A stretch of 64,000 nucleotides of DNA from Iphione sp. A-MEVVRFRX5 (Eukaryota), in NCBI GenBank assembly GCA_976226885.1, contig OZ320318.1:5332001-5396000 (forward strand), written 5' to 3'. Positions 4,186 to 46,390 of the stretch are shown here, piece after piece (position 1 is the stretch's first letter; each line of letters begins with the position of its first letter). The translations under genes were made by a program, and so were the position numbers. Under the pieces are notes generated by a model. It was not told where the DNA came from. It saw only the letters and a program-made list of their open reading frames with translations, and did no database searches.

Positions 4186-4628
4186 ACCTAGGAAAGGAAG
4201 CAGTAGTTAGATGGAACGGAAAAGGACGGAAGAACATGAGAGAAAGAAAGACGGTGAAAGAAAGAGAGGAGACAGAGAGGGGCACACAGTAAGGCAAGAT
4301 TGTTGAATGGCAGGGTGTGAATGGACAAGGTTGCTACTAGAGAAATTCAGAGGGAGCCATCCATGGTACAACACGGTTGATTTAGTCATCTGAAAGATTG
4401 TCAGACTATTATACGGTACATGTATATGTGGTATGCCTATGTTAGGTGTGACATGGACTCTTTCGAGTCAAGTATGACCCATTTTCTGTAAGGTTATGAA
4501 TACTTTCAACTTTAAGTGGCCATTGCTAAGTGATGCCCAGTCAGTTCAGTTAAACACAAGGTCGTCTTCTGTGGACTTTCAACGACTATAGTCTAGTACA
4601 GACATATTAATGAATGGTATTTCCTTAC

Positions 4629-7600: not shown

Positions 7601-9918
7601 CTGATGTTTTTCTGCTGCTTCTCTGTCTTAGCTGGGTCATCTTTCCTGTCCGCGTTGGACACATCAGTCTTATCCTGCTTGTTATTTTCTTTCTGCTTTG
7701 TCTCTGTCTTAGCTGGGTCCATGTTGGACACATCGGTCTTATCCTGCTTCGTCTGTGTCTTAGCCAGGTCTTTGTTGCGCACATTAGTCTTATCCTGATG
7801 GATCTTTTCTGTCCGCTTCTTCTCTGTCTTAGCTGGGTCATCTTTTCTGTCCTTGTTGGGCACATTAGTCTTATCCTGATTGATATTTTCAGTCTGCTTC
7901 TTCCCTGTCTTCATTGGGTTGTCTTTCGTGTCCTTGTTGGGAACATCAGTCTTATCCTGCTGGGTATCATGTTCCACCTCACCTTCACTCTGACTGGTCT
8001 TGCCTCTTTTTCTCTTCATCACAGCTTTGGTGATCCTAGCTTGCCGCACCTGTGCTAGGAGTACATTTCCTTCATCATCACAATGGCAGCAGTCAGAGCT
8101 GGTGTCCAAAGCTACGGATCCCTCTCCCTGCCGCCCCTTCTCGGTTCCCTCTGTGTCCGGCTCCACCACCACGCTTGACTCCGGTGTCGTTGACAGCTGC
8201 GATTCCGCTTCAGGCCCCTCCTCGGTGGACGCGTCCACTGAACTGGTGCAAGGCTCGCTCTGTACAGCTGAGCCATGAGGAGCCTGAGAATGAGGAGGAG
8301 CAGGAGGAGCCTGCTGGGAGTGAACATCCTTCTTTGCACCCTTCTTGAATGTAAACTGGCAGTTTTCGAATGGAAACACAAAGCTAGCACTCTGTAAATG
8401 CGCAACAGTCCCCAGAAACTCCTTCAGCCTCTCGGAGTGCTCTCTAGGCAGCCTGCTGCTGCTGCCCCCACCACCCGACCTCTCAGTGCCTTCCTCCTTG
8501 ACCAGCTTGACCCACACCGAACCGAAGGTCAACTCCAGGTTATAGGCCGCGAGGGAGTCGAGCTGGTCAACTATGACCCACAGGTCGGGCTTAGTAAGAG
8601 ACTCCAGGTTGGAGTCCTCCCTGGAGATGACCAGACCCTTGGTCTTCAACGACACGCTGCTGCAGGCCTCGAAGACAGACAAGACCCGGGCCAGCTCGGC
8701 CTGTGTGCAGGACTCCTTCTCTGTGAACCACTCGGGAAACGTCTCCACGTGCAGCTGTGAGAAGGACAGCTTGCTTTCTCCTCGTGGCATAGCAAAGAGA
8801 ATACTGGCTATCTGCTTGGCCTCATTCGAAACAGGTACTGCCACCACCTCCGCTGCTGCTGCTGCTGCTGATGATGATGATGATGGGGCCTTCTCTTCCT
8901 TGAGAGCTTCTCCACTAGGAGTGCTGTTTCCCAGGGGCGGGCTCTGTCCAGGGGCCAGAGGTGGGACCTCTTCCAATGTGGACCCTTCCCTGGTGGAGAC
9001 TGTCACCTTTGGGGCTCTCCTTCGCGAGCCAGCCCCTCCAGCCTTGCGTTTCGGGACCCTCTTGCCATTCTCCTTGGACACCACACCCGGTGTTTTCCTG
9101 CCTGATATCGGTCCCTTCTGAGGTGGTGTGGTTCTCCTCTTCTTGGTGATTCTGCTGGGTGATGATGCCACTAGGCCAGCCTCCCGCCTACCAGAGGCCT
9201 CCTCCTCGTCCTCTGAATTTTCTCCGGAGCTAGACATGACCTCCATTCCCTTGCTCCTTTCATTCTCCTCCGGTGGTGTCAGGGACCTGCCTTTCCGTTT
9301 CTGTGACATTGAAGCCATCCTCTTCCTCTTCTTGACCTTCTCGCTATTCCCCGAGACCGCAGTGGTGGCTTCGGTTGACGGTTGCTCCCTCTGGTGGACA
9401 TCTTGCTCGACAGGTTCCGTATCGAGGCAGTCTGGGTGCCCATCTGAACTGACACTGGCTTTGCTCACACTCTCAGCTGGGGAAGTATCCTGCACTCTCT
9501 TCCTCTCAGCCACACCTTGGATGGGTCTTTTCTTGGCAGATCTGGATTTCCGTGCTTGGCTTTTTTCACACTCTACAACAGGCTTCTCCTCCTTCTCTGA
9601 ACTACTTTCTTGTGAGCCAGATGAGGAGGAGTCTGTCTCGTCTCCGCTCTCCTCAGCCTGCTTCAGAGAGGTGCCCCTACCCCCAGCAGACTTAGCTCCC
9701 TTTCTGCCCTGAGGGCTGTGACCAACATTCTTCTTCCTCACACGTTTGGTCCCTCCTAGTCTCCAGCGGGTAGCCTCCACCCGTTCTGTTCTCGCTGCCT
9801 CTGCTGCAGACGCTTTGACAGCCGGACGTTTTTCCTTAGTGGATTTACCGGCTGCTTTCTTTGCCCTCACCATCTTTGCTCTCCGCAGAGGGTTACCTTT
9901 CAGCCCTTTGGGCCTCAT
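4629..9918 (-). CDS. Giant coding exon (ATG at 9918; exon acceptor at about 10037) of an uncharacterised low-complexity K/E/S-rich host protein
   Basis: 1779-aa open frame. Acceptor ttttctttgtag|ATACC at 10038, donor GCAG|gtaagg at 4628 (phase 1). In-frame stop upstream of the ATG. Poly-Glu, basic tracts and one globular-looking segment (ILFAMPRGESKLSF...FGSVWVKLV). Confidence 0.8.
5341..5418. repeat. (CTC)26 microsatellite encoding poly-Glu on the minus strand
   Basis: Direct reading. Confidence 0.95.
7500..7950 (-). repeat. Coding tandem repeat, about 6-7 imperfect units of QDKTDVxNK(D)RKxDPAKTEKK
   Basis: Repeated acatcagtcttatcctg / cttagctgggtc motifs. Confidence 0.85.
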
Positions 9919-11040
9919 GGCTCTGAGCGGCTCCTCTTCAACGTGGGTTCACTACATCCTTATTTGGGCAATATTATGAATATCCTGAGATTCAGGTTGA
10001 CTTGCAGACCTCCTCTGCCTGGCTTGGACACTGGTATCTACAAAGAAAACCCAAAATTTAATCATTACTGGTTGTAGCTGTTTTTCGACCAGTTTTATCC
10101 CCCTTCATCATCTTGAGAGTACAACACATAAATAAAACGGCATCCACTTTTGAGGGAGCATATCCCGAGATTCAGGCACACTTGATGACACTCTTCTGTG
10201 ACTGACTTAACTTCAGGCATCTAGAGTAAAAACTGATTAGAATGACCATTCCTTGTGTGATGATGTAATGTCTTGAGCGATAGGAAAATCCTTATAAAAT
10301 ACATGCACTGTGAACCCTAGGGATTACTACTTTATTCTTCTTTGCCACGCTTCCAGCAGACTTATTATAACAGTTGCTTAAGCAGAAAGCTACAGGTGTT
10401 CAAAGGTCATCTGTAAATGGGATGATTATAATACCATATAACTGATAGTGGAGAATGATGATGTTACTTAACAATGACTGTAGGGGAAGATAAGGCTGGG
10501 GAAGGTTCATCCATAGACAGTGTGCTGGGTACATCATGTCCTCAGGTATCATTGTGTAATGGGTCACTTCTAGAACTTTCTGGAAGTGCATGTGATGTTG
10601 GGAGACAATGGTAGATGCCACACAATTCTTAAATTCTGAGGTAGCAATGGATGATCCTTGGGCCCCCCCCCCCTTACACTAAGTGTTATACAATTCTGTA
10701 GTTTAAATGTGGTGGAGAATTTGGCAATTAAGTCACGTCTTAAACTGGATCAATGGTGCGAGCATCTTCCTTCTTGGCTCCTGACTCACAAGGAATCAGT
10801 GTCTCTGCCCCCTGGCAACAAGTCCCTTGTACCAGAAATTCACATTGGCAACCACAGCGTGATGTGAGTAACAAAGTAAGTTACTGTATGCCATGAGATT
10901 AAAACTTGTTACCTGGTCCACATATACATTTTTATGTATTAATCATCCCAGGAAAAATAAAAGTTTTCAAAAAAAAAAAAACGTGTCCAATATCCAAGTT
11001 ACACATATTTACATCTACCACATAACAGTATAAGAGAAAA

Positions 11041-12342: not shown

Positions 12343-13542
12343 ATGGGATGCCAGCTCTCAACACAGATGGCATCCCATTCATTCCCTGGGGCCAAAAATA
12401 AACAGGCAGACTTTCTAAGCCGGTTCCCACGAGGAACAGAAAAGACAGAGGTCAAAGTGATAAACACTGACCGTATAAACATACAACAATGTATGATGAA
12501 TGATGAGGAAGACAGGGAAGAATTAGAAGAGTCTAATCTCTTACCAAGTTTGGGTACAGGTGAGCAGCTTGATATGGCTGCTGAACAAGCCAAAGACAAT
12601 CAGGTAGGCAAGATGAGTACCGATCCCAATTATAGCACTATAAATGGGATACTCTATTATATCAGTGAGATGCCACCCGGCTTGAAGCTAGTTATACCTA
12701 ACCACCTGAAAACGGTTGTTCTTAAAGAGTGCCATGATCACCTAGGTCATATGGGGATGGACAAAACCTATGATAGAATCAGGCAGAAGTACCATTGGAA
12801 AGGGTTGTACAAGGATGTTGTGAAACATGTCTCACACTGTACTGCATGCAACTCATGCAACCTTAGACAACATGCCCAACCAATGCAGCAGATGGACTTG
12901 GTGCAGTTTCCATTCCAAAAGCTGGCCATTGATATCTGTGGCCCATACCCAACATCTCACCATGAAAACAGGTATCTAATTACTTTTGTCAATATATATT
13001 TGGGTTGGCCCGAATTCTTTGCTGTACCAAGACCACCTAGACAGTGGTCAACCTGATTCTGAACGAAATACCGAGACACAGGTGTCCTGGAACTCTATTA
13101 TCTGATAACAGAATTTGTGAACACGATTGTAAGTGGCATCTGTGAAAAGATGAAGATATACAGGATCCGAACAAGTCTATAACATCCTCAATCAAATGGT
13201 AAACTCGAAAGAGTACACCGTGTTTGGAATGACAACGCATCCAGACAAATGAATGTCCCTAGGTCATGGGATCTGATGATACCATCTGCACTCTTGGCCC
13301 TTTGTACCTGTAACCACGAAATGACTCAACACTTCCTGTTCTTCCTCATGACTGGTCGTAATCCTCAACTTCCTTTGGAGCAGGTGTTAGAGCACCACCA
13401 TAAGGCAATGGTTCCAGTGCAGAAACATCATAAGAAAGCACAAGAACAAACAAAGCGGTATCAGGATAGGAAGGCAAAAGAGGCGAACTTGCAAGAAGTT
13501 CTATGTTTTCAGACATGACTGGTCTAGCAAGCTTGATACCAG
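12343..13542 (+). pseudogene. pol: Gypsy integrase, 5' part (frameshifted), interrupted at 13542
   Basis: HHCC zinc-binding motif (ECHDHLGHMG...HCTAC) and core PFQKLAIDICGPYP...RYLITF; ends SKLDTR. Confidence 0.9.
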
Positions 13543-21899: not shown

Positions 21900-23573
21900 A
21901 ATGGGGGTATAGGGCATAGCGAATTGGAAGAGTCACGACAGGCAAACCATCAAAACGAACAAACCAGGGTATAAGTACCAGCCAGGTCAAAACGTTTTGT
22001 ATCTCTGGCTGCAGGAATCTTTAGTGGTATTGCATACTTTGAAGTCATTGAAACAGGAAGTACGTGACCTCCGCAAAAGACAATAGGTTATCTGACATGT
22101 GCTGTCTAAAAGCTGATCTTTAATTAACATGACAAAAATGGAGGTGCAGGAAAACAGACAAGCTATCAACCAGATTATCAACAAGGTAGGGAAATTAGTT
22201 GAAGCCTGGCAAGATAGCTATCAACACTTGCTTGGGGCTATTCAACCCTTACAGCGCTTCACAATCACGTAGGCCCAGTCACAGATGAACTTAAATGTCA
22301 TTAGGGACTTGATAAATGCCAAGAATGCTCTAATCACTGATCTGCATGCGAAGGTGTCAAAACTGTCCAATAAAAAGCTCTCGCCTAATTTCCTTCCAGC
22401 TCCAGAACTAGTAAGAGTTATCAAATCAATTGCCGCCCCATCTAATGTTACCCCAAGACCCATGCCAAAAACCCTGGTATTACTACACTATCTTAAAAAT
22501 GAATACCATTGCTCTGCATGACCAGCTTATAATAACATTAGAGGTACCATTATTGGATGTTGCAAAACAATTTAGCGTCATAGAGGCAATAAGTCTGCCA
22601 GTGCCATTTGAAACATCTAATCTAACTGCGGAGTATGATTTAGAATTCAAAAACTTTGCTGTATCTGTTGATGGGAAACAGTATATAATTCTTACCCTTG
22701 AAGATCAGATCAATTGTGGGAAACCCAACATAAACTTCTGTGCAATGACCTCAGCGGTTTAAGAAATGAATCATCACAAATTTTGCACCTTAGCATTGTA
22801 CCAAAGGGATTTTAAGTAAAATAAGAGAACTATGTCTTACAAAGGTAACAAATAAACTTAAATTACCAACAGCCAAATATATTGAAACAGGTCAATGGTT
22901 AGTAGCTACAAATAGAGACTTTTACTTAAGGAAAATGTGTTTTAATACTGATATTGAGGAGCGTGTCTTGTTCAAACCCCCATTTGGTGTAATAACCCTA
23001 AATTCTGGCTGTCGCACCATTACTGACAAAATAGAGATACCAATATATTTTGAAGATCGCTCTAAAAATGAAGTGATCCGAGAAACTAGAATCACTACTC
23101 CCATAGTGAGAAATCTTTCAGATTTACCAATTTGGCATCCTGGAAAACATCGAAGATTTGAAATAAAATTAGAACTTGACAAGCTACCTCCTATTGAAAA
23201 TCAAAATATTGATACTCTCATCTCGATGCTTGACAATGCAAGATCCAATGACTATTTTAACTTATCACCTACGCATCTACTTTTTGCAATATTTGCTGGC
23301 ATTGCCATAGTCATGATTTTTATTGTGGTCATCATTTTCTTAAAGAGAAAGTCAATGTATAAAGCTGTAGCAAGATCTGTGTTTTTATTTATGCCTGAGT
23401 ATGATCCCTATGGTCAGTATAAGAGAGTTGCTAGAGTTGAGCCACGCATAGAAGTGGACCAACCAACTGTCCCAGAGACTGCTATTCCCGAACCACCACC
23501 ACCACTGGTGGTTCCTCAAAGTACCACTGCTCTCTTAAGTGATGGTGATGTAATGTCATGTTTGTTGCCCTGA
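21900..23573 (+). pseudogene. env: Degraded F-protein-like env gene
   Basis: LEVPLLDVAKQFSVIEAISLPVP..LTAEYDLE, a Cys pattern, and a C-terminal TM segment (LLFAIFAGIAIVMIFIVVIIFLKRK); lies downstream of integrase; several stops. Confidence 0.75.
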
Positions 23574-28464: not shown

Positions 28465-29130
28465 TGTAATATATAATAAGCCCCCTGCTTGCAGATAGCA
28501 AGGTGGAGGAGCAGAGCATGACTAGACTCCTGCTGACCAGGAGCTTCAGCCTGTATATAAGGAGTGGGATCCATCCACCTCAAACAGACTGGTGAGGGGA
28601 GCAGAGACAACATCACTGGCTGAGCCACCAAGACCACCAGCCTGACTATCCTGAGAGAGGCCCATCACTGCTGCTACCAGGGGAAAAGCTGTCAAAAGCC
28701 AACCGATGTGCGGCTGCTGTGCTGTGCTGCTGTACTGTGCTGTGATGCTGTGCCATACTTTGCTGACGCTGCTATTAGGTTTTCCCCTGGGTAGACAGCG
28801 ATAGTGATAGGGATCCTCTTCTCAAATGTGGCTGGGTGGTAGGGATGTGCTGCCTTCTAACAATATTGTTCTTGCAATTAAACAATTTTTAAATAACTCC
28901 AGTCCCAAAGGCATCAATTGTTGCATTGTGTTACAAGTAACATAACCTTTTGGGTGCCATGACCAGGATAAGAACAAAGCTCTGTTACATTACAGCTTTC
29001 TGAATCCCTGATGGAGAAAGACACAATGAGACGAAGTGCTGCCGCAGTACATTTCTGACCTGCAGAACCATCATCACAACCGTTTGTCTCCATAACCAAC
29101 CATCATCACAACCGTTTGTCTCCATAACCA
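28465..29130 (+). repeat. LTR family A, copy 1
   Basis: Shares gatagcaaggtggaggagcag...ggagcttcagcctgtatataaggagtg...aataactccagtccc with the 32190 and 34335 copies; starts TG; gag follows. The end position is approximate. Confidence 0.8.
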
Positions 29131-31330: not shown

Positions 31331-32189
31331 CCTAGCAAGGTTACGGAAATGGTATTGTAAGGAGAGGGAGGATTCCAGAGGAAGAAGATATTCCTCTGAT
31401 GGAACTAGATATTCCTCTGATGGAACTAGCTAAGTGAATGAGAGAGAGGGAAGAAAGAAAAGAACAGATGGAGAGGGAGAGAATTGTGGAACATACAGAG
31501 GGGGACATTAATGAACAAGAAGATTGCATTTCTGACAAGAGACCCACTGACTCAGAAATGCCCATGGACAGTGAGACTGACAATCGAAACATGGAGAATG
31601 ATGACATGGGTGTACAGGTGCAAAATGCATGTAGGCAATCAACTACTAAGCGTAAGGGCCAAAGCTTATGCTGAGCCGTGAAAGGCATTGAAGTCATTTT
31701 TAGGCTGGCCGTTGATTAGTAGTAGTAAGCGTATTGTTTTACCAGGCAGCAATACGGACAGAGAGGATTGATGGTCATTATGTATATATTTTCCAGAAGA
31801 AACCATGATCAGACTGATGGTCATAACCTTCTTTATGACAGCCAGTGCTTTAATCATTAACAATAAGGTAGTTTTTAAAAGAGTAAACATAGTAACCACA
31901 ACCACATTGACATCTACGAATATTTATTGTTTGTAGATAGAGAAAAAGTGTATTTTCAGCTGGCTGCAAATACCTAGTTGTATGAAATTGCCAGGATAAA
32001 TAAACGATTAATAATAATAACATGGCTTGTCTCCCTTATGGTAGACTTGAAACCATTCACTTCATGAAGAAAATAGCCGGGAATGTAGATGGTAGCTAGA
32101 TACTGTAACACAAATGAAGAATTTAAAGACATTAATTAATTTATTTCAAACAAAAGGTGTCTATAACTTTGGTGGAGGGGGGAGGACCT

Positions 32190-32808
32190 TGTGATATCTG
32201 CTTCCAGATAGCAAGGTGGAGGAGCAGCATGTGACCAGACAGATAATGGATGGATGGGAACTATTCCTGCTGACAAGATACCAGGAGCTTCAGCCTGTAT
32301 ATAAGGAGTGAGATCCATCCACCTTAGACAGACTGGAGGGAGGAGCAGAGACGACAACAACCGGCTGAACCATCAAGACCACCAGCCTAACTCTACCCTG
32401 AGGGAAGCCCATCACTACTGCTACCATGGGAAGTGCTGCCACAAGCCGACCGATATACTGCTGCTGTGCTGTGCTGATGCTGCTTTTAGGCCTTCCCCTG
32501 AGTAGATAGTGCTAAGGACCCTCTTCTCTGCTTTGGCTGGGTGGTGGAGCCGTGCTGCCTTCGAACACTACTATTTCATTCAATAAACCATTTTCAAATA
32601 ACTCCAGTCCCAAAGGCGTCACTTGTTACATTGTGTTACAAGTGACTAACCTTTTTGGTGCCATGACCAGGATTCATAAAGCTCTGTTATATTACAGCTT
32701 ACTGGATCCTGACGAAGGTAGGCAAACAAGAGACGAAATACTACCACTGAACACGTGCAAGGAGGATAAACCATCACAACTGACCACTTGTCCCTGTAAT
32801 CATCAACA
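32190..32808 (+). repeat. LTR family A, copy 2, preceded by a polypurine tract
   Basis: ggagggggggagga-cct-TGTGATATC ... catcaaCA. Confidence 0.8.
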
Positions 32809-34334
32809 TGTAAGACCCTGAAAAGCTCACCAGCCATTGGTCAATGGGAAGAAAGAACCGAGTAATGGCCTACTGGTTGTTTTTTCTGGATGCCAGGAAA
32901 CGTGGTTATACAAGGGAAGAAGTTGAACTTGTCTGGCCAAAGGTGCATGAAGCCCATCGTAGTATATAGAAAGCAAAGGTAAGAAAACAGAACCAGGTGA
33001 AAGAAGTGGCACATGCTCCAGGTCGTCTAGGGTTAATGGCCCAAACCCGACTAGTGTATGCACGTAGATCACTGGCTTCGCAGATGCCGCAGATAGGCTA
33101 AGCGGACGACCCGCTGGGAGATGGGAGGTCTGTCTACAGAGAATTACAGCTGAGATCAGAAGATGGAGAGGTAAATATTGAACAATTTGTGTGTGCTGTC
33201 GAAGACGTCAAAGGACCTGCATTCTGGGACACCAGTGGAGAGGTATGGTAGAGACTGGTATGGACTGCTCCAGTTTGGGACAGAAGCACGAAGGAGTTGG
33301 GCGCTGCAGTACCGAGTGACGTGCTCCCTACTCCTAAGTGCTTAAAAAGTGTTGATGTTGAAGTTAAATGTATTGAACAGTGTCAACGTTAAATGTGTTG
33401 AAGGGTATTGAGGTTTAATCTGTCAAACGATGTTGAACAGGTGTTGGTTGAACAGTGTCAATGTTCAATGTGTTGAAGTGAAAAGTGTTGAATAATGTTG
33501 AAGTTGAACAGTGTTGGTCAGGCAGTATTGATGTTAAATGTGTTGAACGATGTTGAAGTCAAGTAATATTGAAGATGAATGGTGCTGACGTAAAATGTGT
33601 TGGATGATGTTGAAGTTGAATGGTGATAAAGTTAATGATGCTGAAATAAAACGTGTGGAATAGTGTGGAAGGTTGGAGGTGATAGTAGGATGGGGGAAGA
33701 ACCTGCCACTCCTGTTTTAATGTGACGCCACATACAAAGTGGTACTGGATGGGGAGATAATTTTTTTGGATGCAACTGAGTGATGGGGGCAGTACTATCG
33801 AAATTTGATGGTTATGAGAAATGGTATGGGATAGGGAGTTAATTGTTGATGCAACTGAATGGAGGAGGGAGGGCCATACTTGGGTCAATAGTGGCAATAG
33901 GACTGGTAAACTCCCTCATACCAATGATCATGCAGATGACGCTGATCGGTTGTGGGATGGGAGGAGGACTATCAGTCCATTGCAGTTGATGAGGTCGTAG
34001 GATTCTCAATGGAGGTAGACGTAGTTAGCATCGCCAGGAAGCCTACTCCTGGCCAACGATGGAAGGAAGGTCATCAGGTGGGCAGCGATCATTGCTCTGG
34101 GGATGAGGGTCTTCAGGACCCTATGACTAGTATGTTGGGAGTACCACTAGCATCCTCACCCAATGATGACTCTTCAAGAAGAGCTGTGACAAACACAGAC
34201 GCAAGGTGGTCATTGTTCACCTGTTTGGGGGTGAGTGTAACACAATTGCCCTTGAGGAGACAAATTTTCAAATGAACAATTTAATTCTATATGTTGTGTG
34301 AAATAAAGATGAATATAGTGGGGGGGGAGGACCT

Positions 34335-34783
34335 TGTGATATCTGCTTCCAGATAGCAAGGTGGAGGAGCAGCGCATGACCGGACAGATGTCTGATGGAT
34401 GGGAACCACTCCTGCTGACAAGATACCAGGAGCTTCAGCCTGTATATAAGGAGTGAGATCCATAAACCTCAGACAGACTGGAGGGAGGAGCAGAGACGAC
34501 AACAACCGCCAAGACCACCAGCCTGACTACCCTGAGGGAAGCCCACCACTGCTGCTACCAGGGAAAGTGCTGCCACAAGCCAATCGATGTGCTGCTGCTG
34601 TGCTGCCGTGCCATGCTACTGTCCTGATGCTGCTGTTAGGCCTTCCCCTGAGTAGACAGTGCAAGGGACCCTCTTCTGTCCGGTGGCAGGGTGGTGGAGC
34701 CATGCTGCCTTCGAACACTACTATTTCATTCAATAAACCATTTTCAAATAACTCCAGTCCCAAGGGCATCACTTGTTACATGT
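34335..34783 (+). repeat. LTR family A, copy 3, interrupted by the young Gypsy element
   Basis: Same PPT and TGTGATATC start; about 10 further nt (atgtgttaca) follow 44222. Confidence 0.85.
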
Positions 34784-35294
34784 TGTACCATTGGCAAACC
34801 ACCGGTTAGTCCTCTAAGGGATCTCCACGCATTCTGAACAATGAGGTCATGTGGTATAGAGAACAGGTTAATATATGCAGGAAGGCCTGGAGTGAGATGG
34901 CGTCCAGCCAAGGAGTGACTGGGAGGAGTATGATGAAAGATCCTGGTACAAGACGTCAAAGGAGGAAAAGACAATAAAACAAAGAACTTAGTAATGACGT
35001 CAAGAAACATCACGAGACGGGATATGTTGCTATTTTGCCGGGAGGCGTGTGTGTGTAATACCGGTTAGAAAGGAAATGGGATGTTGTCATAGCATCGAGG
35101 GGCGAAGGATACACGTAAACATCTACATACCGAGATGAGTATAAACGTAGCTAAGGAAAAGATAATAAACGTCTTCTCTTGTCTGAGCTTCAGACCATGC
35201 GGTTCCGTGTCCTGCTTTGTCCATAATACTAGAGGGAACTCTACAGTAGTAAATGTGAACGTGTGGCCCGGGCCCTGTCCAACCGTACGGCACA
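34784..35294 (+). repeat. 5' LTR of the young element
   Basis: TGTACC...GGCACA; six differences from the 3' LTR found by eye. Confidence 0.97.
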
Positions 35295-35560
35295 TTGTTT
35301 GGGGACCCGGACGAGACTCCGGCGAGGAGAGTGGGATGGTTCCCTAGTCGCCCGTCGGAGGAGAGAGGCAGGACGCAAACCTGTTCATGGTTTGACAGGG
35401 TAAGCTGGGTGACTGCTAGCCGACTGACACCGGTCTGATGTGCAGATGGCGAATAGTGGCTCTGCATTTAAACCATTCTGGCTGTGGGTGTTGGTTTGGA
35501 GGGTGCCGCTACAAGTTTGGAGCATCGTGGTAATGGCGCAGGCCCTCTCGCCCCGACGAC

Positions 35561-36640
35561 ATGCCAGGAAAACGAAGCAAGACGGCCCTGTACTGGCTGT
35601 TCCTCTTGGATGCCCGAGCAGCCGGGTACACTAGGTACCAAGTCGAGCACACCTGGCCGCAGGTAACGGAGGAGGAACGACTAGAGTACCGAGAGGCAGC
35701 GAAAGAGTCCACCAGAGGGCGTAAGTTAGGTATTCCTGTTACTGCACCTAACCTATTGCGGACTTCCATAGTGGCAAAGCTCAATCGTACACCACGGGAA
35801 GGGCCGCCCCGATTCTCCAGGCACGTGGGATTCCTCTCGAGGCACGTGGAGTGGAGGTCTCCACGGGTGACTGAACCGGAGGACGAGCGGTGTGTCGTGG
35901 TAGAAGCCGAAGACGAGCGGCGTGTTGTAGTGCATGATCAGAGGCGGGTTGTGATTGAAGAGGAGGACGCCCAGCTACGACCCCGTGGGTTGCGGTCTGA
36001 CCCACTGACCAGATTTCCAGCACTACCGGCAGTTGAGGATACCCCGCGGATAGTGGAGGTGAGTGACTGGGAGGAAGAAGGTGCCGTTGGAGGGGTCTGC
36101 CTGGACAGGCCAGAGACTCTCCCCTGGTTGCCCCCTCCATTGCCTCCAACTGACCTTGAGGAGAGATTCCCCGCAGATTTTGTCAAGCGACAGGTTGAGA
36201 AACAGTTTCTGCCTTATGGACCGCCGTCTCCCCCTTCTGAGTTCCGGGACATGCCGGGACTGGAGCCCATTCCTGGACTGGTGTGTCGGCCGGAGTTAAC
36301 TGATTCTGACTACGAACTTGACTCTCCTTTTGAGTACCTGAGTTTGTGCGTAGAATCCGCTGAGGCCGCCCGTAGGTCATGTCGGCGGCGGTCGCATGCT
36401 CCAACTCGTCCCAGCACACCCTTGGACGATACTCCCAAGACAGGCGAGAGTTACTTCGCCCAGGTGAGCCGTGCCGTCTGGCAGTCTCTCGAGGACGATT
36501 GGAGCAGTGACAAAGAAGTAAACCTCGAGTGGTACTTTGAGGAGATGAAGGATGTAATGGGACCAAACCTGTGGAGCCGCCGATACGAGCCAGGCCCCGA
36601 GGAGTTTGGACCGGAAGGGTTGGAAAGACGTGACGGTTAG
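35561..36640 (+). CDS. Extra ORF0 (359 aa) between PBS and gag; N-terminal HMG-box-like segment, acidic/Pro-rich remainder
   Basis: Uninterrupted ATG-to-TAG frame. KRSKTALYWLFLLDAR...WPQVTEEERLEYREAAKE resembles HMG helices 1 and 3 with a shortened middle. Confidence 0.7.
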   Translation: MPGKRSKTALYWLFLLDARAAGYTRYQVEHTWPQVTEEERLEYREAAKESTRGRKLGIPVTAPNLLRTSIVAKLNRTPREGPPRFSRHVGFLSRHVEWRSPRVTEPEDERCVVVEAEDERRVVVHDQRRVVIEEEDAQLRPRGLRSDPLTRFPALPAVEDTPRIVEVSDWEEEGAVGGVCLDRPETLPWLPPPLPPTDLEERFPADFVKRQVEKQFLPYGPPSPPSEFRDMPGLEPIPGLVCRPELTDSDYELDSPFEYLSLCVESAEAARRSCRRRSHAPTRPSTPLDDTPKTGESYFAQVSRAVWQSLEDDWSSDKEVNLEWYFEEMKDVMGPNLWSRRYEPGPEEFGPEGLERRDG

Positions 36641-36696
36641 GAGAACATCGTGTTTGATATACAGCTGCCTTCTGACTGCCCAGACGTACCAACACC

Positions 36697-37768
36697 ATGG
36701 CGACCCCAGCACCCGCCCCCACGGAAGAGGATTACCTCCGGCAGATCCAACATCAGGAACAACAACTTCGGCAGTTGGAGGTCCGGATCCAGCAGTTGAC
36801 GACGCAGCAACAACAACAACAGCAACAACCCCAGCAACAGCAGCCGCAGAACAAGTCCGATTGGCAACGACAACTCCTGTTTAGGCACGAGTGCGCAGTC
36901 TTGGACGGGGACCGGGGACGGAGAGGTGTTGAGCTTGGTGGGATGTTTAGTAAAAGGGAAGCTGGACCAGTCGATTCGTCGCTGGATCTCGGAATTTAAG
37001 CAGCAGAACGGGGAGAATGCCGTCTGTACGTGGGGATACCTTAAGAAGTGTATAGAAACCCACTACCTGGACGCTGACGAGCGGGAGTACCTGCGGCGCA
37101 AGGTAGACGAATTGTGCCAGACTCCGCTCCAGGGGGTCCGGGAGTATGCCCAGAGCTTTGAACAGGCGGTGCGACGGGCGTACACGGAAGAGGAACTGGG
37201 CGTAGAGGTCGTGAAAGATCGGCTGATAAAGATGTCTGTGTCTGGGATTAGGAATTCAGGGACTCGTATCCAGGTCTTCATTGACCGGCCGACGACTCTG
37301 GTGGCCACCTACGAACGGGCCGTGGCGATTGATCGAGCTACGGAAATGGCCTGTACGACGCGCAATGAGGAGGCCATGGAGGTGGGGGCTGTTGGGGGAG
37401 GCCCACGTCCACCGCGTGCCGGAACACCACGAGCCACCTGGGCACCGGCCACGCCAGACGACCTCCTAAAGAAGATGGGGGAAATGATGGCGAACGTCGA
37501 TCGCCGTCTGAATGACCTGCGCCTGGAGGTCACTAACACCGTAGCCACCGCGGGACAAGCAACTCCCCAGAGGAAGCGGGCTCGGGGTAAAGGCCCACGG
37601 AAGCTGAGGAATCAGTACGGGAAGGAACCTTGGACCCCGGATGGCCGGCGGGTGTGCTTCAACTGCCCTCAGGAGGGGCACATGTTGAGGGAGTGCCAAG
37701 CCCCTCATGCTCCTCGTGACTCTCGTGACTCGACAGAGACACAACCGAAACAGGGAAACGGGAAATAG
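36697..37768 (+). CDS. gag: gag, broken by a frameshift (probably a deletion) near 36900
   Basis: Q-rich N-terminus, retrotransposon-gag core (QGVREYAQSFE), CCHC knuckle CFNCPQEGHMLREC. Confidence 0.9.
37753..37759 (+). promoter_or_regulatory. -1 ribosomal frameshift heptamer G GGA AAC at the gag-pol junction
   Basis: X XXY YYZ in the gag frame two codons before the stop; pol is in the -1 frame. Confidence 0.8.
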
Positions 37769-37785
37769 CCGCATCTGACGGACGA

Positions 37786-40700
37786 TTGAGGGTGAATGGT
37801 GTAGTGAATGGGTGTCACGCCCATACCCTCATAGATACGGGTGCGGCCCGCTCCATGTTGAACTTGGACTTTTGGCTGAGGTCCTGCTCTGAGTCTAGGA
37901 GACTACCGATGTTAGACCGATGCCACACCGACCTTGTCTCTATAACTGGTGACCCTGTTCCGGTGTTGGGACAATTCACTGCGGATATAAATGGGGAGGA
38001 TATTCCAATGATTGTTAGTGCGGACTTACACCACGACATGCTACTCGGCATCGATGCCCTCAGGGCCATGCATGCAGTCATCGATTTAAATGGACCCTCA
38101 GCGCGTATCCAACTAGCTGGGGAGTGGTTCGATGCCGAGCGGTTGGAGGATGACAACCAGGACGCCATCATGGTTGCCGACCCAGTCGCCCAGTGGCAAG
38201 TGGAGTTTCCAACAGTGGTGAGTGATGAGATTAGATTCAATCAGGGCATAGAAATGACGATCGATACCGGGGATACTCCACCAATACGCCAGAGGCCGTA
38301 TCAAATTCCCCTGACTAAACGAAAGGTCGTGGAGAAGGAGGTAGAGAAGATGCTGGAGAAAGGGATAATTCGGCCTTCCTCTTCCCCATGGGCCTCCCCA
38401 GTGACATTGGTGCCTAAGAAGGATGGGACTATCCGGTTTTGTGTGGACTATAGGCGACTGAATGCCGCGACTCGGAAAGACTCACATCCACTGCCACAAA
38501 TACAGGACATTTTCGATACCTTGGCTGGAGCGTCCTATTTTACAACCTTAGACCTCCGCTCGGGCTATTGGCAGCTACCGATGAGTGAGCAGGCAATTCC
38601 AAAGACTGCCTTCATCACCCACAATGGACTGTACGAGTTTGTGCGCATGCCTTTTGGACTCTGTAATGCCCCAGCTGTATTCCAACGTGAGATGCAGCGG
38701 GTTCTTGGTGATGCCATAGGCAGGCATGCTATGGTGTACCTTGATGACATTGTGATCTTCAGCCCAACCGAAAGAGCATGAGTGGCACGTCCGGGATGTG
38801 CTGAAACGGCTCGAACAAGGGGGATTGGTGATCAAGCTCTCCAAATGTACTTTTAACCAGAGGAGTCTACCCCTCCTGGGCTATATCGTCTCTGGGGAAG
38901 GCATTGCGGCTGACCCTGAGAAGACCAGTGCCATCAATGACCTCCGGGCTCCCGCCAACGTAGCTGAACTACGCCGATTCTTGGGAATGGCTGGCTATTA
39001 CCAACAACTCATCCCTTATTACAGCCACCTAGCAGCACCTCTAACCAATCTACTGAAGAAGAAAGAAGCATGGGTGTGGGGTGAGGCCTGCCAGTCTGCG
39101 TTTCAACAACTGAAGGCTGCCCTTGTCTCCAGCCAGGTAATGATGCACCCTCGTGTGGGTGAGCCATACCTTTTGTACACAGATGCCTCCGACTATGCGG
39201 TGGGGAGCATCCTGTGTCAGAAGGACAGCACCGGTGTTGAGCGGCCCATCCAGTATGTATCCAAGACCCTGAAGGGATCGGAGCTGAAGTGGAGTGTGAT
39301 TGAGAAGGAGGCCTACAGCATTGTGCATGCCCTCAAGAAACTGCGGCTGTATCTGTATGGAGCCGAGTTTACCATCTACACGGACCACAAGCCCCTCAAA
39401 GCGTTATTCTTAGGGGAAGTCAAGAACACCAAGGTCCAGCGGTGGGCATCACTTATCGCTGAATATGGAGCCCCAATTCAACACTGGTCTGGGCGGCATA
39501 GCATACGAGCGGACATGCTGTCCCGAATTGCCCAAGTGAGTGAGATCGCCACCGTAGACACCGCGGACTGGGTGGAAGCGGAGTCGGATCCAGCAGACAC
39601 CGTTCCCTGGAGCTGGGATGGACTGAACCGGGAGGAAGTTGCTCGTAAACAACAGGACATGCCTGAATGGCAACTGGCGGATGATGAGGACAGTACCTAT
39701 CAACGCTACAAGGGCCTGTTGTGGAGCGCCTTACAGCTCCCAGGGCAGACCCAGTATCCCAGGTTAGTACTACCACCCGAGTTCCGAGAGCAAATCACCA
39801 GGAAGGCACATGAGGATGTGGGACATCAGGGCCAGACAAAAACATTACATCGGGTACGTGAGCTGTACTACTGGCCGAAACAGCGTGAGACTCTACAGCA
39901 GTGTATCTATCGGTGCCCACACTGCCGCGTGAATGACGCTAGGGTCGTTCGAGCACCCCCTGATGGGATGCCCACAGCCGTCTACCCAGGAGAGATTGTG
40001 GGAATGGACTTAGTGGGGCCCCTGCCTAGGTCTGCAGAGGGTAACAGCCACATCCTCACACTCCTGGACCATGCTACGGGTTGGGCGAAGGCTTACCCAA
40101 TCCCTGCGAAAACTGGCGAGGCTGTTGTGAAGAGTTTGCAACGAGAGTATGTCCCTCGGCATGGAGTACCCAGCGTGATCATCCATGATAACGGGACAGA
40201 GTTTATGAACGCTACCGTGCAGACATATCTCTCCAGCATCGGGGTTGATGCGAGGCGCACTACTGTATACCACCCTCAAACCAATGGGAAGGTGGAGCGC
40301 TTCCACAGGACTCTAAAGGACATATTGAGGAAACGCGTCAACAACCACTCCAGCCAATGGGAGGAACATTTGGGACCGGCCCTCCTAGCTTATCGCCAGT
40401 CGGTCTCTGAGACAACTGGGTACTCTCCCTTCTATCTCTTGTACGGGCATCATGCTCAATATCCAACTCTGAACGTTCCAGAATCATCTACGGAATTGGG
40501 AGGACGATTGGAACGAATGGCAGTTGCGTTACGACATGCCGCAGAAAGCACGCAGCAGGCTAAGGAGCGGTACAGGGATGAGGCAGAGGGGAGGGCGAAT
40601 GCGGACCATCTCCGGGTGGGGGACCGTGTGCTACCCAGGGCGCATGAGCGAGCGCCACAAGACGCAAAATCGGACTTGCCAAAAGAAGTCACGCGTGTCT

Positions 40701-41140
40701 GGGGCAGCGTGATCTGGTGTCGTTCTCTGAACGGCACCGGTGCGGTAAGGTCCTATCATCGCTCCAAGCTGCAGAAGGTGGATTCGGACATAGACTGGTC
40801 TCCCATTAGGCCCCGAGTAACTCGGTACTTTAGGAACCGGCCGTCACGACCATCCCCAGGGTCCCCTCCCCCAGGGCGGCCAGTGATGATGTCAGAACGA
40901 GACCCGGACTTCACCCCAGCTATCCAGGCACCACCAACCGCTCCCATGGGTGGGTCTACACCCGGCGACCCCGCGCCGCTTATGAGGAGCCGGCCAGAGC
41001 GCCCAAGGCCAGTATCCCCCGTACCAGCCAGGCGTTCAGAGCGACTCCGTCGGAAAGCCGAAGGAGAAACCATTGACCCTTCAGCTCCAAGTTGTAAACA
41101 ACAACGATGTGCCGTTGTGCGAGTGACTTCTTCCTTTTAA
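37786..41140 (+). CDS. pol: pol (PR-RT-RNase H-integrase) with a 1-bp lesion near 38770
   Basis: LIDTGA; FCVDYRRLN, LDLRSGYWQ, YLDD; LYTDAS..EKEAY; HHCC; GMDLVGP, HDNG, NGKVERFH. Confidence 0.97.
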
Positions 41141-42873
41141 TCCTTTTTACTGTCCATGTAAGCCTTGTGTATGGAACAACGCCTCTCCCAACATCAACTC
41201 AACTCAGCCAACCTCCAACTACTCCGGCTCCCAAAGGAGATTATACACGCCGCTCCTTTCCGAATGGGGTTGTTCTCCAACAGGTTGATGATGCTTATTT
41301 GATGAAGACCGAGTGGACTATCCTGATACGTGTCGATGCCCCGCGGGAACCTCCTGTTTTGCAATGGCTAATGGCAATGCACGCAACCGTCTCTGCCGGC
41401 AATTGGTTGTCTGAGGTAGATCGCAACCATACTTTACACCAACTTCAACGGTTAGCAAACCACATCCTGCAGCGCTATAGCCATGCAGACGGCCAAGGCA
41501 TCTGGCTTGAAGATGATACTTACCAACCACGGTCGTACCGAGGCCGTCGACTGCAGGGTCTCATCAATTTTGTGGGCGATGTGTTCCGCGTGTTATTTGG
41601 CACCGCTACTGAAGCCGAGGTGGACGCACTTCGGGTTCAGGTAAATCGGGCGGAGGAGCGCCAAGAGGCACTCTACCACAATGAACAACAACTTTTGAGT
41701 GTCGTCGATCTAACTAGACAGTTTGTGGCCGCCAATCGAAAGGACATCCAAAGCTTGGCCGCACATACCAACATGCTGGTCACAAGACTGGGTAATGCAA
41801 TCAATTGAGTCGTTGGCACATCGCTTGGGACAGATAGTATTGGCCCGACAGGTTGAGAGGTGGATCTGCCTGTGCCGGGAGGTACTCGAACGGTATAAGG
41901 AAGAATGGCAACACTATCTGCGGATGAGGCAGGATCTGGAGTGGGGGCACCTGTTCGAAGACACCATACCCCCTAGCCAGCTGCGGAACTTTTTGGATCG
42001 TTTGGCCCGATATGGGAAAGTGCTACCGGAGCACTGGTATTATCAGCATACACCCATTAAGTTAGTTACGGCCGAACCGAGGCGCATGGTGTTCAGGGTT
42101 CGCTTATGGGCAGCGGAACCTGAGGAATACCATGTCTGGAGGCTGAAGACATTCCCTGTGCGCGACGGCGACTTTATGTCCCGCCTCCTCCTTCGGGAGG
42201 TGGTGGCGGTGGATAAGCGGAGGGCTCGACTGTTCATCCCTGAAAGGTGCCGAGGAGGACGACTACGCATCTGCGATGCCGGGACCATCGAGACTCGCGC
42301 CTGTGAATTGGACGTTGTCGGTGAAGCCGCTCCCTCGTGCAACGTTGAGGTGGTTAGGCCAACCGCGGGGCTAGTAATCACTCATTGGACTGGGAATCAG
42401 TGGGTCCTATCATCAGGACACTCAGCCAAAGTACTGTTACACTGTGTGGAGAAACACCCCCAAGACAGTTCACGATATCCGGTTCTGAGATGTGGACTCT
42501 GAGCAATGGATGCACCCTGGAGACGGACAACATGACGACCTATCAGAGCCGTGGGTTCATAACACAAGTTAAACATGTATATGCCCCTCTTGTAATGCCT
42601 AACATTTCTTTGTACCTGCCCCCAGAGGTGCGCATGGCGCTACCTCATAAGCTTCACCTAGCTAGTCGTGTGGTCATTCCCGACGTAGCTATGAAGCTGG
42701 AGGCTCTGCCCCCAATAGCCCCGGCCTGGTATGGTCGTCCTGAGGTCATCTCTCCTATGGGTATTGGACTCTTTGTTCTTATTATATTCTTTTGTGTTTG
42801 TGGTTATTGTTATGTTACTCGCCGATGTTGTTGCGGTTGTGGTAAATGTTTTCTAGGTAAGCGGTCGGGTTAA
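41107..42873 (+). CDS. env: F-protein-like env in three overlapping frames (two frameshifts)
   Basis: Signal peptide; basic cleavage site followed by a fusion-peptide motif (RGRRLQ-GLINFVGDVFRVLFGTAT); heptad region; Cys-rich region; C-terminal TM (IGLFVLIIFFCVCGY). Confidence 0.88.
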
Positions 42874-42975
42874 CCAGGAGCCTCCCCAGGCGTGACGGTA
42901 TCCCAGGCAGTCCAGACCCACAAGACTGCTACGGTACTGTCCCGGAGTTCGCCGAGGGCAACGAGCAGCCGGGCA

Positions 42976-43400
42976 TCATCTCTTGAACGGCCGTTGCCGC
43001 GACCTCCACCGCTCCCGAACAAAAAAGGGACTGGCTCTGGTACACCGCCGGAGAACATCTTTGAAATGATCAACATGCAAGATATTAGTCGCTAGTATAA
43101 CGCTATTTTGGTGGATGGTCTGCATGCGGCGCTTTCGTTTAAGTGTAAAATACAAGTTTGTATTTGTTTCTCTTGGTCGCGCAGCGAGTCTGATCTCGTA
43201 AATGGCCTGTACACTCAACTTCTTCTTGGGAGAAATCACCCTCCCATGGTCAGCAAGCGAGTCTGATCTCGTAAATAGGCCTGCCAATCCTCTGATCTCT
43301 TTTTCCTTGACCATCAATTCTTCCATTTGCCTTAGTTCCTTATTTTGAGGTTCAGGGTAGATCCGGACCCCAAAATATTGGCTAGTTGGAGTCGAGGGCT
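42976..43400 (-). CDS. Short antisense ORF between env and the PPT (116 aa from ATG 43326; frame open from about 43400)
   Basis: ORF track plus manual extension; basic; no recognisable motif. Confidence 0.3.
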
Positions 43401-43711
43401 CCTGGACTAATTTTCTGAAGCTTTAGGGGTAGAATACATAACCTTGCTGAAAATGTGTTGTTCATAATCAAGAGTGCTCTTAAGTGCTGTGATTTATGGT
43501 GTTCCTATTAATTCTCCTTGTACGCTGGTGGAGGAATTTTGAATGTCCAAACAGTGAGAGAATCTTCCATATAATCTAAGAAGGATTGCATGAATTAATG
43601 TAAGACATATAGGCATGCCAACTTATGCGATTTAGGGACTATTACTCAGCTTAAGAGGAACAGCGAAAATATCTAAAGCTTTGCAGACAAAGCTCATAAG
43701 GGGGGGAGGAG

Positions 43712-44222
43712 TGTACCGTTGGCAAACCACCGGTTAGTCCTCTAAGGGATCTCCACGCATTCTGAACAATGAGGTCATGTGGTATAGAGAACAGGTTAAT
43801 ATATGCAGGAAGGCCTGGAGTGAGATGGCGTCCAGCCAAGGAGTGACTGGGAGGAGTATGATGAAAGATCCTGGTACAAGACGTCAAAGGAGGAAAAGAC
43901 AATAAAACAAAGAACTTAGTAATGACGTCAAGAAACATCACGAGACGGGATATGTTGCTATTTTGCCGGGAGGCGTGTGTGTGTAATACCGGTTAGAAAG
44001 GAAATGGGATGTTGTCATAGCATCGAGGGGTGAAGGATACACGTAAGCATCTACATACCGAGATGAGTATAAATGTAGCTAAGGAAAAGATAATAAACGT
44101 CTTCTCTTGTCTGAGCTTCAGACCATGCGGTTCCGTGTCCTGCTTTGTCCATAATACTAGAGGGAACTCTACAGCAGTAAATGTGAACGTGCGGCCCGGG
44201 CCCTGTCCAACCGTACGGCACA
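43712..44222 (+). repeat. 3' LTR of the young element
   Basis: 511 bp; follows the PPT. Confidence 0.97.
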
Positions 44223-44230
44223 ATGTGTTA

Positions 44231-46390
44231 CATGTTGCGCTACATTGTAAGCAGAAACAGTATCCACACGGACCCCGATAAGGTAGAAGCTATAAGGAAC
44301 ATGGCCCCTACCCATGATGTGAAGGTTTTGCACTCTTACCTTGACACTATGGGATATTACTGCCAGTGTATCCCCAATTATGCCAAGGAAGCCCATGCTC
44401 TAGTTCAACTCACCAAGAAGCATGCCAGCTTCTATTGGGGGGCAAGAGGAGCAACGATCTTGGGAGAAGCTGCAGGACCTACTTGTGTCAGACCAAGTCA
44501 TGGCATATCCCCAGACCGACAAGCCCTACAAGCTGTACACTGATGCCTGTGACTATGCAGTTGGGGCTATACTGGTCCAAGAGCATGGTGAGGGCATTGA
44601 ACGGCCAGTCCAGTATATGTCCAAGCAGATCTCTGGTGCCAAACTGTGCTAGGCAACGATTGAAAAAGAAGCATGCGCCGTTGTCCATGTGTTTAAAAAA
44701 CTACGCCGATACCTCTAATCCGCTGACTTTACCATCTACATTGACCACAAGCTACTACAATCCCCATTCCAGTTGGAGATAAAAAAAACACCAAGATACA
44801 AAGGTGGGCTGTACTGATAGCGGAATATGGTGCCCCTATTCAGTACTGCAAGGGCCCCAACATCAGAGCTGATATGCTCACCCGGATCCGAACCAAGGGT
44901 GTGGTTTATGGCACCACAACGAGAGTGATCTGTGCGGTAGAGGAAGAGGATGGAGTACCCTGGGAGTTCGACAAGCTGGAAAAAGCAGAAATCCATAAAG
45001 CATTAAGCGAAATGGAGCAATATGCCTGGGGATGAGAGGAAGAAAACATGTCCTCCACGACGGGTTGCTGTACATACTGGAACCTCCACAAGGGCAAGGC
45101 ACCTACCCTCGCCTGGTCCTGCCTCAAAGTGCCCGCTAACGCATCATCCGGCGTGCGCACATGGACATTGGGCACCAAAGAATGAGGAAAACCATGGATC
45201 AAATCCAGGAGGCATATAAATGGCAATGCCAACAAATGGAGGTCTACGAGGTGGTTTCCAAGCATGTGAGGTGGACTGTCAATAAGACCAGACAGGACAA
45301 GCCAATACCGACAGACATGCTTATGGCACAATACCCTTGCCAGCTGGTAGGCATGGACGTGTGAGGGGCTTTCCCTGCCTTACGTTATGGAAACCACTAC
45401 CTCCTGAATTTGCAAGTGATGGGTGGAAGCTTGGCCCTTACTACAAAAGATCACTGCTAATGTCCTGCACAATCTGGAGCCGGAGTACGTTCCCTGGACC
45501 TCCAGAGACAGTCATAATGGACTGTGGGCTCGAGTTAAAGAACCAGCTTGTGTGCGGCTATCTGCAACAGCTTGGGGTTCCACCGAACCTTGAAGGACAT
45601 TATCAGAAAGTTGGTAAATGCACAAGGGAACGAGTGGGAGGACTGCTTTGGCCCTGTCCTGTGGGCACATCGGGTCAACACACCAGTGGTGACAGGATAT
45701 ACACCATACTTCCTCACCTATGGCCGCAAGCCCCTAGTGCCCTTCAACCGACTTCTGACCCCAGTGGAGGGGTCTGAGTCCGAGATCCTGGCAACCCGCC
45801 TGGATGACCTCAGCCTCGCCTTCAAGGAAGCAGCTCGGAGAACAGAAGAGTCGTCACTACAACAGAGACCGTCTAGAAAAGCATGCCAACGCCAACACTG
45901 TTGAGATGGGTGACCATGTTGTAGTGATAGCTCAGGAGAGCTCCCCCCTTGACCCTAAATGGGACCGCGGTTTTGTTGTTATCTGGATCCAAGGTCCAGT
46001 TATCACAGTCCTGGGCTGTGGAAATCAGCGAAAGACCCTTAATAGTGATAAGGTCAAGCTGGTTCCAGCTGACATTTAGCAAGACGACGTCTGCCCATGC
46101 CTGACCAGAGCTCAAAGGGCACCATGGCTGTGCAAATCACCCAACTGGCCACAGCCAATCAGACACAAGAAATGAAGAAGACAGGATGCTGATAATCCAC
46201 CTACACAGGCTACAAAAAGACTATGAGTCACCAGCCAAGATCAAGAGGAGGCTTGAACCCACATTGCGGTCAAAAAGGAGACTAGAAGAACAGGCTTTGT
46301 TCTCAAAGGGCGAACGGAGACTCGGGCCAACACTGAGATCAAAACGAGGTCCCTACGACGGAAGAACAAGAAGCTGCCAAGCAACTATGC
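44231..46390 (+). pseudogene. pol: Degraded Gypsy RT thumb-RNase H-integrase, same clade as the young element
   Basis: YIVS..TDPDKVEAI, LYTDACDYAVGAIL, GMDV, FHRTLKDIIRK, PLDPKWD; many stops and frameshifts. Confidence 0.9.

Follow-up and report, generated by a model that had tools for sequence, protein, structure and literature searches.

Errantiviruses of the Ty3/gypsy group that carry an F-type envelope gene (env), named "ancient errantiviruses," have been reported across invertebrates (Chary and Hayashi, eLife 2026; PMC13524379). The available text of that report describes three open reading frames (ORFs) and states that other ORF arrangements were not searched. An element of a known kind, an F-env Ty3/gypsy errantivirus with host tRNA-Arg(TCG) as its primer, occupies positions 34784 to 44222 of the window analyzed here, a stretch of 64,000 nucleotides (nt) from Iphione sp. 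A-MEVVRFRX5 (contig OZ320318.1, positions 5,332,001 to 5,396,000, forward strand). It fits the F-env errantiviruses of PMC13524379, as judged from features rather than from a shared Pol tree. Annelida_Polychaeta_Apac_errantivirus_1, listed in the same report, likewise has the gag-pol-env order and an F-type env with a furin site and fusion peptide; its listed primer-binding site (PBS) equals the 12-nt PBS of siblings of the window element, and its long terminal repeat (LTR) measures 509 bp compared with 511 bp. However, at ~7.4 kb, and compared by description only, it has no space for ORF0, the additional gene that lies upstream of gag in the window element (35561 to 36640, plus strand; 359 amino acids [aa]; open frame in the window copy). 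Of 10 Arg-PBS entries examined among the 1,512 elements of PMC13524379, 3 span at least 9.3 kb.

Gypsy elements with an env gene have turned out to be common outside insects, and the window element alone is ordinary. What is out of the ordinary is an accessory gene under selection that is found in an errantivirus and also in a non-autonomous LTR element and a DNA transposon. The new part is ORF0 and its cross-class family, not the youth of the element or the five-ORF layout ascribed to it by a first-pass annotation of the same DNA. That annotation overlooked the kinship of ORF0, which belongs to an HMG-box-like gene family common to a Mutator-like transposon and a second LTR element.

ORF0 and its homologues in other transposons

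ORF0 is almost certainly a real protein-coding gene, and it is under purifying selection. Its ratio of nonsynonymous to synonymous polymorphism (pN/pS), pooled over pairs of eight copies, was 0.32 (95% codon bootstrap, 0.26 to 0.41; the copies are related, so such intervals are optimistic), with 1.10 and 1.21 in the off-frames. Other genes of the element gave 0.22 (gag), 0.22 (pol), and 0.29 (env). One further copy, L021, was excluded from this set because the 5′ half of its ORF0 is not homologous. Across nine aligned copies, ORF0 is fully open in three, shortened in frame in one, cut late in one, and broken in four. The proposal that ORF0 is an accessory gene, which was to fall if the frame were missing from other copies, has therefore held up: the frame is open here and in siblings and is under selection. 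Three loci (L018, L019, and L020) lack 76 aa from the middle of ORF0 through a common in-frame loss and carry the same LTR variant; they are possibly segmental or assembly duplicates of one insertion. The ORF0 protein has a basic, HMG-box-like N-terminus (aa ~3 to 55), a proline-rich and acidic linker, and a conserved acidic, helical C-terminus (aa ~296 to 340), with no transmembrane segment. Its C-terminal domain has a pN/pS of 0.18, and EF-hand matches to it reach only E values of 0.1 to 0.5.

A reverse transcriptase (RT) tree of 30 rows, all from elements of this genome (L070 was left out as too short), placed the 15 ORF0-bearing rows in one clade (support, 100/100). None of the sister and outgroup loci L116 to L127 matched the ORF0 family profile. 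Since the ORF0-bearing rows form one clade and the sister and outgroup loci are without a profile match, a single gain of ORF0 is the simplest reading and is likely. The sister pair L118 and L125 shares the PBS type, and L118, with a short leader, spans 7.5 kb. Surveys that look for three-ORF errantiviruses can miss genes 5′ of gag.

Searching the genome (1.18 Gb in 89 contigs) with the ORF0 protein gave 116 matches, mostly to residues 3 to 53 and within frames of ~140 to 185 codons. These matches belong to two carriers, a Mutator-like DNA transposon and a non-autonomous LTR element. Compact proteins of 136 to 140 aa correspond to the two ends of ORF0, without the ~200 aa in between; against the 140-aa protein, ORF0 is 42% identical across 50 aa (E = 4e-12), with a further match at the C-terminus (E = 5e-5). 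Between the two compact-gene carriers, nonsynonymous divergence (dN) is 0.37 to 0.40 and synonymous divergence (dS) is saturated. Five unnamed proteins of 113 to 131 aa from ENA and Logan (P0001, P0005 to P0007, and P0010) show the whole compact pattern, and because these outside homologues share it, the compact form is likely ancestral, as judged from sequence. Two of six rows, P0004 and P0008, were dropped as homologues, their matches being driven by repeats. Full-length ORF0 had no match in Pfam, the ESM Atlas, or a word-indexed search of 197- to 629-aa proteins; the compact protein had no usable ESM Atlas match. With the family profile, viral and metagenome contigs offered no genomic context, and no viral fold matched significantly.

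The first carrier is 14.3 kb long, with imperfect terminal inverted repeats and with target-site duplications (TSDs) of 8 to 10 bp in all five copies that have both ends, the only copies whose ends were checked. Its matches to the Pfam domains MULE (E = 2e-4) and PHD (E = 0.01) both fall under the Pfam cut-offs. It is Mutator-like, a placement made from the TSDs, inverted repeats, and weak PHD and MULE matches, and it is high-copy: a protein query from the second, tRNA-His-type carrier returned 999 first-pass candidates, and 142 of the 150 scored rows were of the DNA-transposon class (53 to 58%). Copies include L057 to L060, L062, L066, and L076 (for example, G000:C2 at about 3.883 to 3.898 Mb). 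They have a minisatellite within the PHD-bearing frame and a frame of ~180 codons near the right end, and some hold nested insertions; the length exceeds the range of 1.4 to 10 kb given for arthropod Mutator-like elements in the available text of PMC13359780.

The second carrier (L061) is a multi-copy LTR element of ~3 kb with a tRNA-His-type PBS, a splice-donor-like motif, tandem repeats, and a 136-aa ORF that is the sole gene between its LTRs. Of eight loci selected for their related LTRs, the three examined are autonomous, plain gag-pol-env elements that lack the compact gene. An L061-type element (32110 to 34783, plus strand) is itself the insertion host of the window errantivirus, which entered 6 bp inside the end of its 3′ LTR, so that this LTR ends at 44227 to 44232. 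Its compact ORF0 homologue (32844 to 33248, plus strand) has two in-frame stops and 85% identity to the L061 protein. Degenerate tandem repeats 3′ of the compact gene (33355 to 33684 in the window; 2500 to 2950 in L061) are possible binding sites.

An AlphaFold2 model of the 140-aa homologue, built from a nine-row alignment, had a mean predicted local distance difference test score (pLDDT) of 67 and a predicted template modeling score (pTM) of 0.46. Compared with 48,161 chains, the model ranked the HMG boxes of SSRP1 (Z = 6.5), HMGB1 (5.8), and Sox11 (5.3) first. HMG-box proteins, among which we presumptively count Sox11, Abf2p, TFAM, and 9mn4_A, made up 17 of the top 20 structural rows, over residues ~4 to 58 (best row, root-mean-square deviation of 2.8 over 55 residues). 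The top Foldseek row, which was not significant, was TFAM. Sequence comparisons gave weak matches to HMG boxes (PMS1, E = 0.18; Pfam HMG_box_2, E = 0.14; Maelstrom, E = 0.28) and a host HMG profile match at E = 0.0035 over 26 columns. The Pfam HMG-box match remained below its cut-off (13.2 bits versus 22.4), and a single family member among 10 reached E = 0.066. An aromatic core of Trp, Phe, and Tyr and the pattern W-x-x-[LV]-x-x-x-x-[RK]-x-x-Y are kept. The model and these comparisons suggest that the N-terminus of ORF0 is probably an HMG-like fold, namely, a shortened HMG box.

Predicted expression and possible roles of ORF0

ORF0 lies within a predicted intron. A predicted major splice donor, G/GTAAG (35400 to 35404, plus strand), stands 5′ of the ORF0 start, with GT in 8/8 and GTAAG in 7/8 copies that hold the region. 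Predicted acceptors, each found in 9/9 copies, stand before gag (TACAG/CTG; 36652 to 36664, plus strand), in a noncoding spacer, and before env (TGACCCTTCAG and then the cut; 41074 to 41084, plus strand), the latter inside pol, so that its conservation is perhaps partly protein-driven. At the gag end, all nine copies have the heptamer G GGA AAC (37753 to 37759, plus strand), which we take to be of the slippery-motif class and which predicts a −1 frameshift into pol; the pol frame is −1 relative to gag in siblings. From these motifs we consider it fairly likely that unspliced RNA would serve as genome and ORF0 message, while joining of the leader donor to the gag and env acceptors would yield Gag, Gag-Pol (through the −1 frameshift), and Env.

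The DNA transposon, the gene-only LTR element, and the errantivirus all keep the gene, which should therefore act at a step that each of them needs, namely, transcription in host chromatin. The ORF0 protein might accordingly be placed in the nucleus, where it would bind DNA or chromatin through its HMG-like box while its acidic C-terminal domain would raise transcription or resist silencing. A function useful to DNA transposon and retroelement alike would explain the presence of the gene in both. On this basis, and with the modeled fold in mind, we tentatively read ORF0 as a nuclear, HMG-box-like, transposon-promoting regulator at the chromatin level, a proposal with somewhat less than an even chance.

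Several observations weigh against this proposal. The fold comes from the model of the compact homologue, not from ORF0 itself; its best Z score of 6.5 is within the range for common helical arrangements, and the hhalign probability is 9%. By eye, the stretch of the box from helix 1 to the conserved Trp is ~10 residues shorter than in the HMG boxes of the host, and DNA binding may have been lost through this shortening. Among 28 DNA-transposon copies, mostly picked from the top-scoring matches, the compact gene has a pN/pS of 0.75 compared with 0.85 to 1.16 off-frame, and in that transposon its divergence is roughly that of its 3′ flank. The 8- to 11-mers common to the noncoding regions of the three carriers are no more numerous than in shuffles, although family-specific motifs may still exist. 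The leader contains five ATGs ahead of the ORF0 start. Lastly, one point in favor of the proposal is weakened: CpG transitions between copies run at ~2 to 5 times the non-CpG rate, which suggests host methylation of the copies, but GpC sites are raised too in some pairs.

Some HMG boxes bind RNA, and ORF0 could instead act on RNA, either as a Rev-like balancer of unspliced and spliced RNA or as a decoy for an HMG-box protein of the PIWI-interacting RNA (piRNA) pathway, such as Maelstrom. Its place within the predicted intron, its basic N-terminus, and the shortened box all suit such a role, and Maelstrom is the best PDB sequence match of the family profile (E = 0.28). That match, however, is not significant and is limited to the generic third helix of the HMG box, and SSRP1, HMGB1, and Sox11 rank higher structurally. 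Retroelement-specific export also leaves the gene of the DNA transposon unexplained, whereas a piRNA decoy would explain it; overall, we consider action on RNA rather unlikely. An accessory protein with a different fold and a merely HMG-like N-terminus, working through contacts with other proteins, for instance, to counter a host restriction factor, would be in keeping with the modest Z score, hhalign probability, and Pfam score (13 versus 22.4) and with the ARID, RbcX, and RyR repeats that also appear at Z scores of 4 to 5. Since several sequence comparisons and the structural search rank HMG boxes first, and the aromatic core and helix pattern are kept, we hold this to be improbable.

The near-neutral pN/pS of 0.75 also invites the view that the DNA transposon carries the gene family as passive cargo, which LTR elements acquired on two occasions and which is of use, if anywhere, in the errantivirus alone. 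Near-neutral ratios among DNA-transposon copies are, however, expected of genes that act in trans. The protein is conserved between carriers whose dS is saturated, full-length distant homologues exist in other datasets, a multi-copy LTR element keeps it as its sole gene, and it is under selection in the errantivirus. Mutator-like elements do capture extra sequence, according to the available text of PMC6446971; we nonetheless give passive cargo only a small chance. A structural origin, with ORF0 as a matrix-like or similar piece split off from Gag, is very improbable. ORF0 does immediately precede gag, in the same orientation, but a 57-nt gap separates the ORF0 stop from the gag ATG, with the gag frame closed in between, and the sister families have no such region, on which two grounds we rejected this origin; homologues in a capsid-less DNA transposon argue against it as well. 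The chromatin-level regulator remains our tentatively preferred reading of ORF0.

Structure, integrity, and setting of the window errantivirus

The element has the paired TG...CA LTRs, PBS, polypurine tract (PPT), and short TSD of Ty3/gypsy elements. Its 511-bp LTRs (5′, 34784 to 35294; 3′, 43712 to 44222; both plus strand) differ by six substitutions and no indels; all six are transitions, four of them at CpG sites. Copies of the TSD, ATGT, are found on both sides (34780 to 34783 and 44223 to 44226, plus strand). Five siblings also have 4-bp TSDs (three ATAT, one CTGG, and one CCAT/CCGT). A PPT lies at 43700 to 43711 and the tRNA-Arg(TCG) PBS at 35300 to 35317 (both plus strand), the latter with one mismatch in the window copy; in several siblings all 18 nt of the PBS are complementary to the 3′ terminus encoded by a host tRNA-Arg(TCG) gene with CCA added. 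The LTR length, six differences, TSD, and PPT of the first-pass annotation were all recovered, as was its 34-nt overlap of env with pol, the env ATG at 41107 preceding the pol stop. A recent insertion of the window errantivirus is supported by the LTR identity.

Pfam domains on the window pieces and on open sibling frames bear out the errantivirus-like identity proposed earlier. The sibling frames contain Retrotrans_gag, CCHC, protease, RT, RNase H, and integrase domains, with pol in the order PR-RT-RH-IN, although the protease match scores below its Pfam cut-off. Baculo_F matches env at E values of 2e-5 to 4e-5, just under the curated cut-off. Hydrophobic peaks in env appear in 3/3 open sibling frames, and RGRR appears in 2/3 and in the window copy.

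The layout LTR-PBS-ORF0-gag-pol-env-PPT-LTR comprises four genes, not five. After ORF0 come gag (36697 to 37768; capsid and CCHC knuckle), pol (37729 to 41140; protease, RT, RNase H, and integrase), and F-type env (41107 to 42873; signal peptide, RGRR furin site, hydrophobic fusion peptide, and transmembrane helix), all on the plus strand. The fifth frame of the earlier layout, an antisense ORF in the 3′ untranslated region (42976 to 43326, minus strand), is intact in 1/9 aligned copies and broken by stops or frame-changing length in 8/9. With a pN/pS of 0.89 (95% interval, 0.58 to 1.49), it was ruled out as a gene and is a chance open frame. Two 35-nt direct repeats lie in the same untranslated region (43169 to 43276), whose length varies among copies.

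The window copy is a defective genomic copy, in which gag is split into two pieces, pol into two, and env into three by frameshifts near 36.9, 38.8, 41.8, and 42.5 kb. These may be inherited, may postdate insertion, or may be assembly errors. The element is full length in structure, as first described, but not in coding, and gag, pol, and env are not the single ORFs once assumed. For every one of the four genes, several siblings have an open frame: among the nine aligned copies, gag is open in six and env in three, and pol exceeds 1,070 codons in three.

The family is small: at least 11 loci have RT identity of at least 94% to the window element, and the window LTR has at least 53 genome matches. 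The closest siblings are ~96% identical to the window copy, the aligned close loci are ~4 to 13% diverged from it, and LTR pairs in the best-preserved copies are 98.2 to 99.7% alike. The label of a young, recently active family is therefore supported as to recent insertion, going by LTR identity, but not as to a burst, none of the close loci exceeding 98%. With four frameshifts and nearest siblings at ~96%, the element also falls outside the intact multi-copy errantiviruses as defined in PMC13524379 (continuous ORFs and copies >98% identical). The genome holds several further families that are young, bear env, and have three ORFs (L116 to L122, L155, and L156); their pol frames are long and open, and their LTR pairs are 98.7 to 100% alike where both LTRs are in view.

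Elsewhere in the window, gag and RT pieces of an ORF0-less errantivirus that groups with L117 and L119 (26014 to 27653) and RT-like residues directly after the element (44233 to 44543) are likely one older element split by nested insertions. A further His-type LTR lies at 28526 to 29080, and retroelement fragments with weak Baculo_F and integrase zinc-finger matches lie at 22794 to 23573 and 12343 to 13056. A frame of 1,789 codons (4579 to 9948, minus strand), which is low in complexity, rich in Glu, Lys, and Ser, and has a poly-Glu run and no Pfam match, is likely a very long host exon.

Comparison with described accessory genes

Each component of this picture has a precedent. The literature yielded no HMG-box ORF in an LTR retrotransposon and no such gene shared with a Mutator element, Repbase, GyDB, Dfam, most subscription journals, and supplements being outside the scope of this search; an earlier repeat-database entry for the ORF0 family may exist. 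The 14.3-kb carrier is similar to Rehavkus of arthropods and annelids in its PHD finger, minisatellite, and TSDs (9 bp in Rehavkus; PMC6446971), a likeness of features rather than of a transposase tree. Unlike this carrier, Rehavkus is listed with one ORF, and "HMG" is absent from the main text of PMC6446971. PHD-bearing Rehavkus elements also appear in the available texts of PMC13359780 and PMC6431247.

Like the ORF0 family, the ORF3 types of bdelloid rotifers place one ORF type in unrelated transposon lineages of a genome (PMC5408684). As described there, those are enzymes (GDSL esterase and DEDDy exonuclease) confined to retroelements, whereas the ORF0 family reaches a DNA transposon and is a predicted nucleic-acid-binding regulator. 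The sORF1 of the Drosophila MDG1 group (412, Mdg1, and Stalker; PMC11952523) also lies upstream of gag in Ty3/gypsy elements and has a low dN/dS; it is nuclear and has a predicted fold of a DNA-binding type. Compared by description, sORF1 differs from ORF0 in its ~110-aa length, predicted helix-turn-helix, env-less elements, and unspliced transcripts, and the available text of PMC11952523 describes no sharing with DNA transposons.

How animal transposons counter silencing is largely open, and the anti-silencing proteins turned up by our literature search were plant ones. The ORF0 family offers a small protein, three carriers found in nature, and sister families without ORF0 to serve as controls, and it makes the question directly testable. 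VANC of the Arabidopsis VANDAL elements, like the compact homologue, is an accessory gene on a large Mutator-like element, and it promotes element expression (PMC5735166); VANC on plant Mutator-like elements is also treated in 10.64898/2026.08.24.746577. By analogy, VANC may serve as a functional model for the compact homologue. It differs in being a plant protein with demonstrated sequence-specific hypomethylation and tandem target motifs; no VANC-related Pfam family was matched here, and a shared target motif of the VANC type was not found among the three carriers. More speculatively, and with a rather low chance of being right, ORF0 could be the first seen member of an animal HMG-box-derived anti-silencing family, a counterpart of VANC that changes hands between DNA transposons and retroelements with envelopes, possibly mimics a piRNA-pathway or chromatin factor, and has in the gene-only LTR element a dedicated vehicle.

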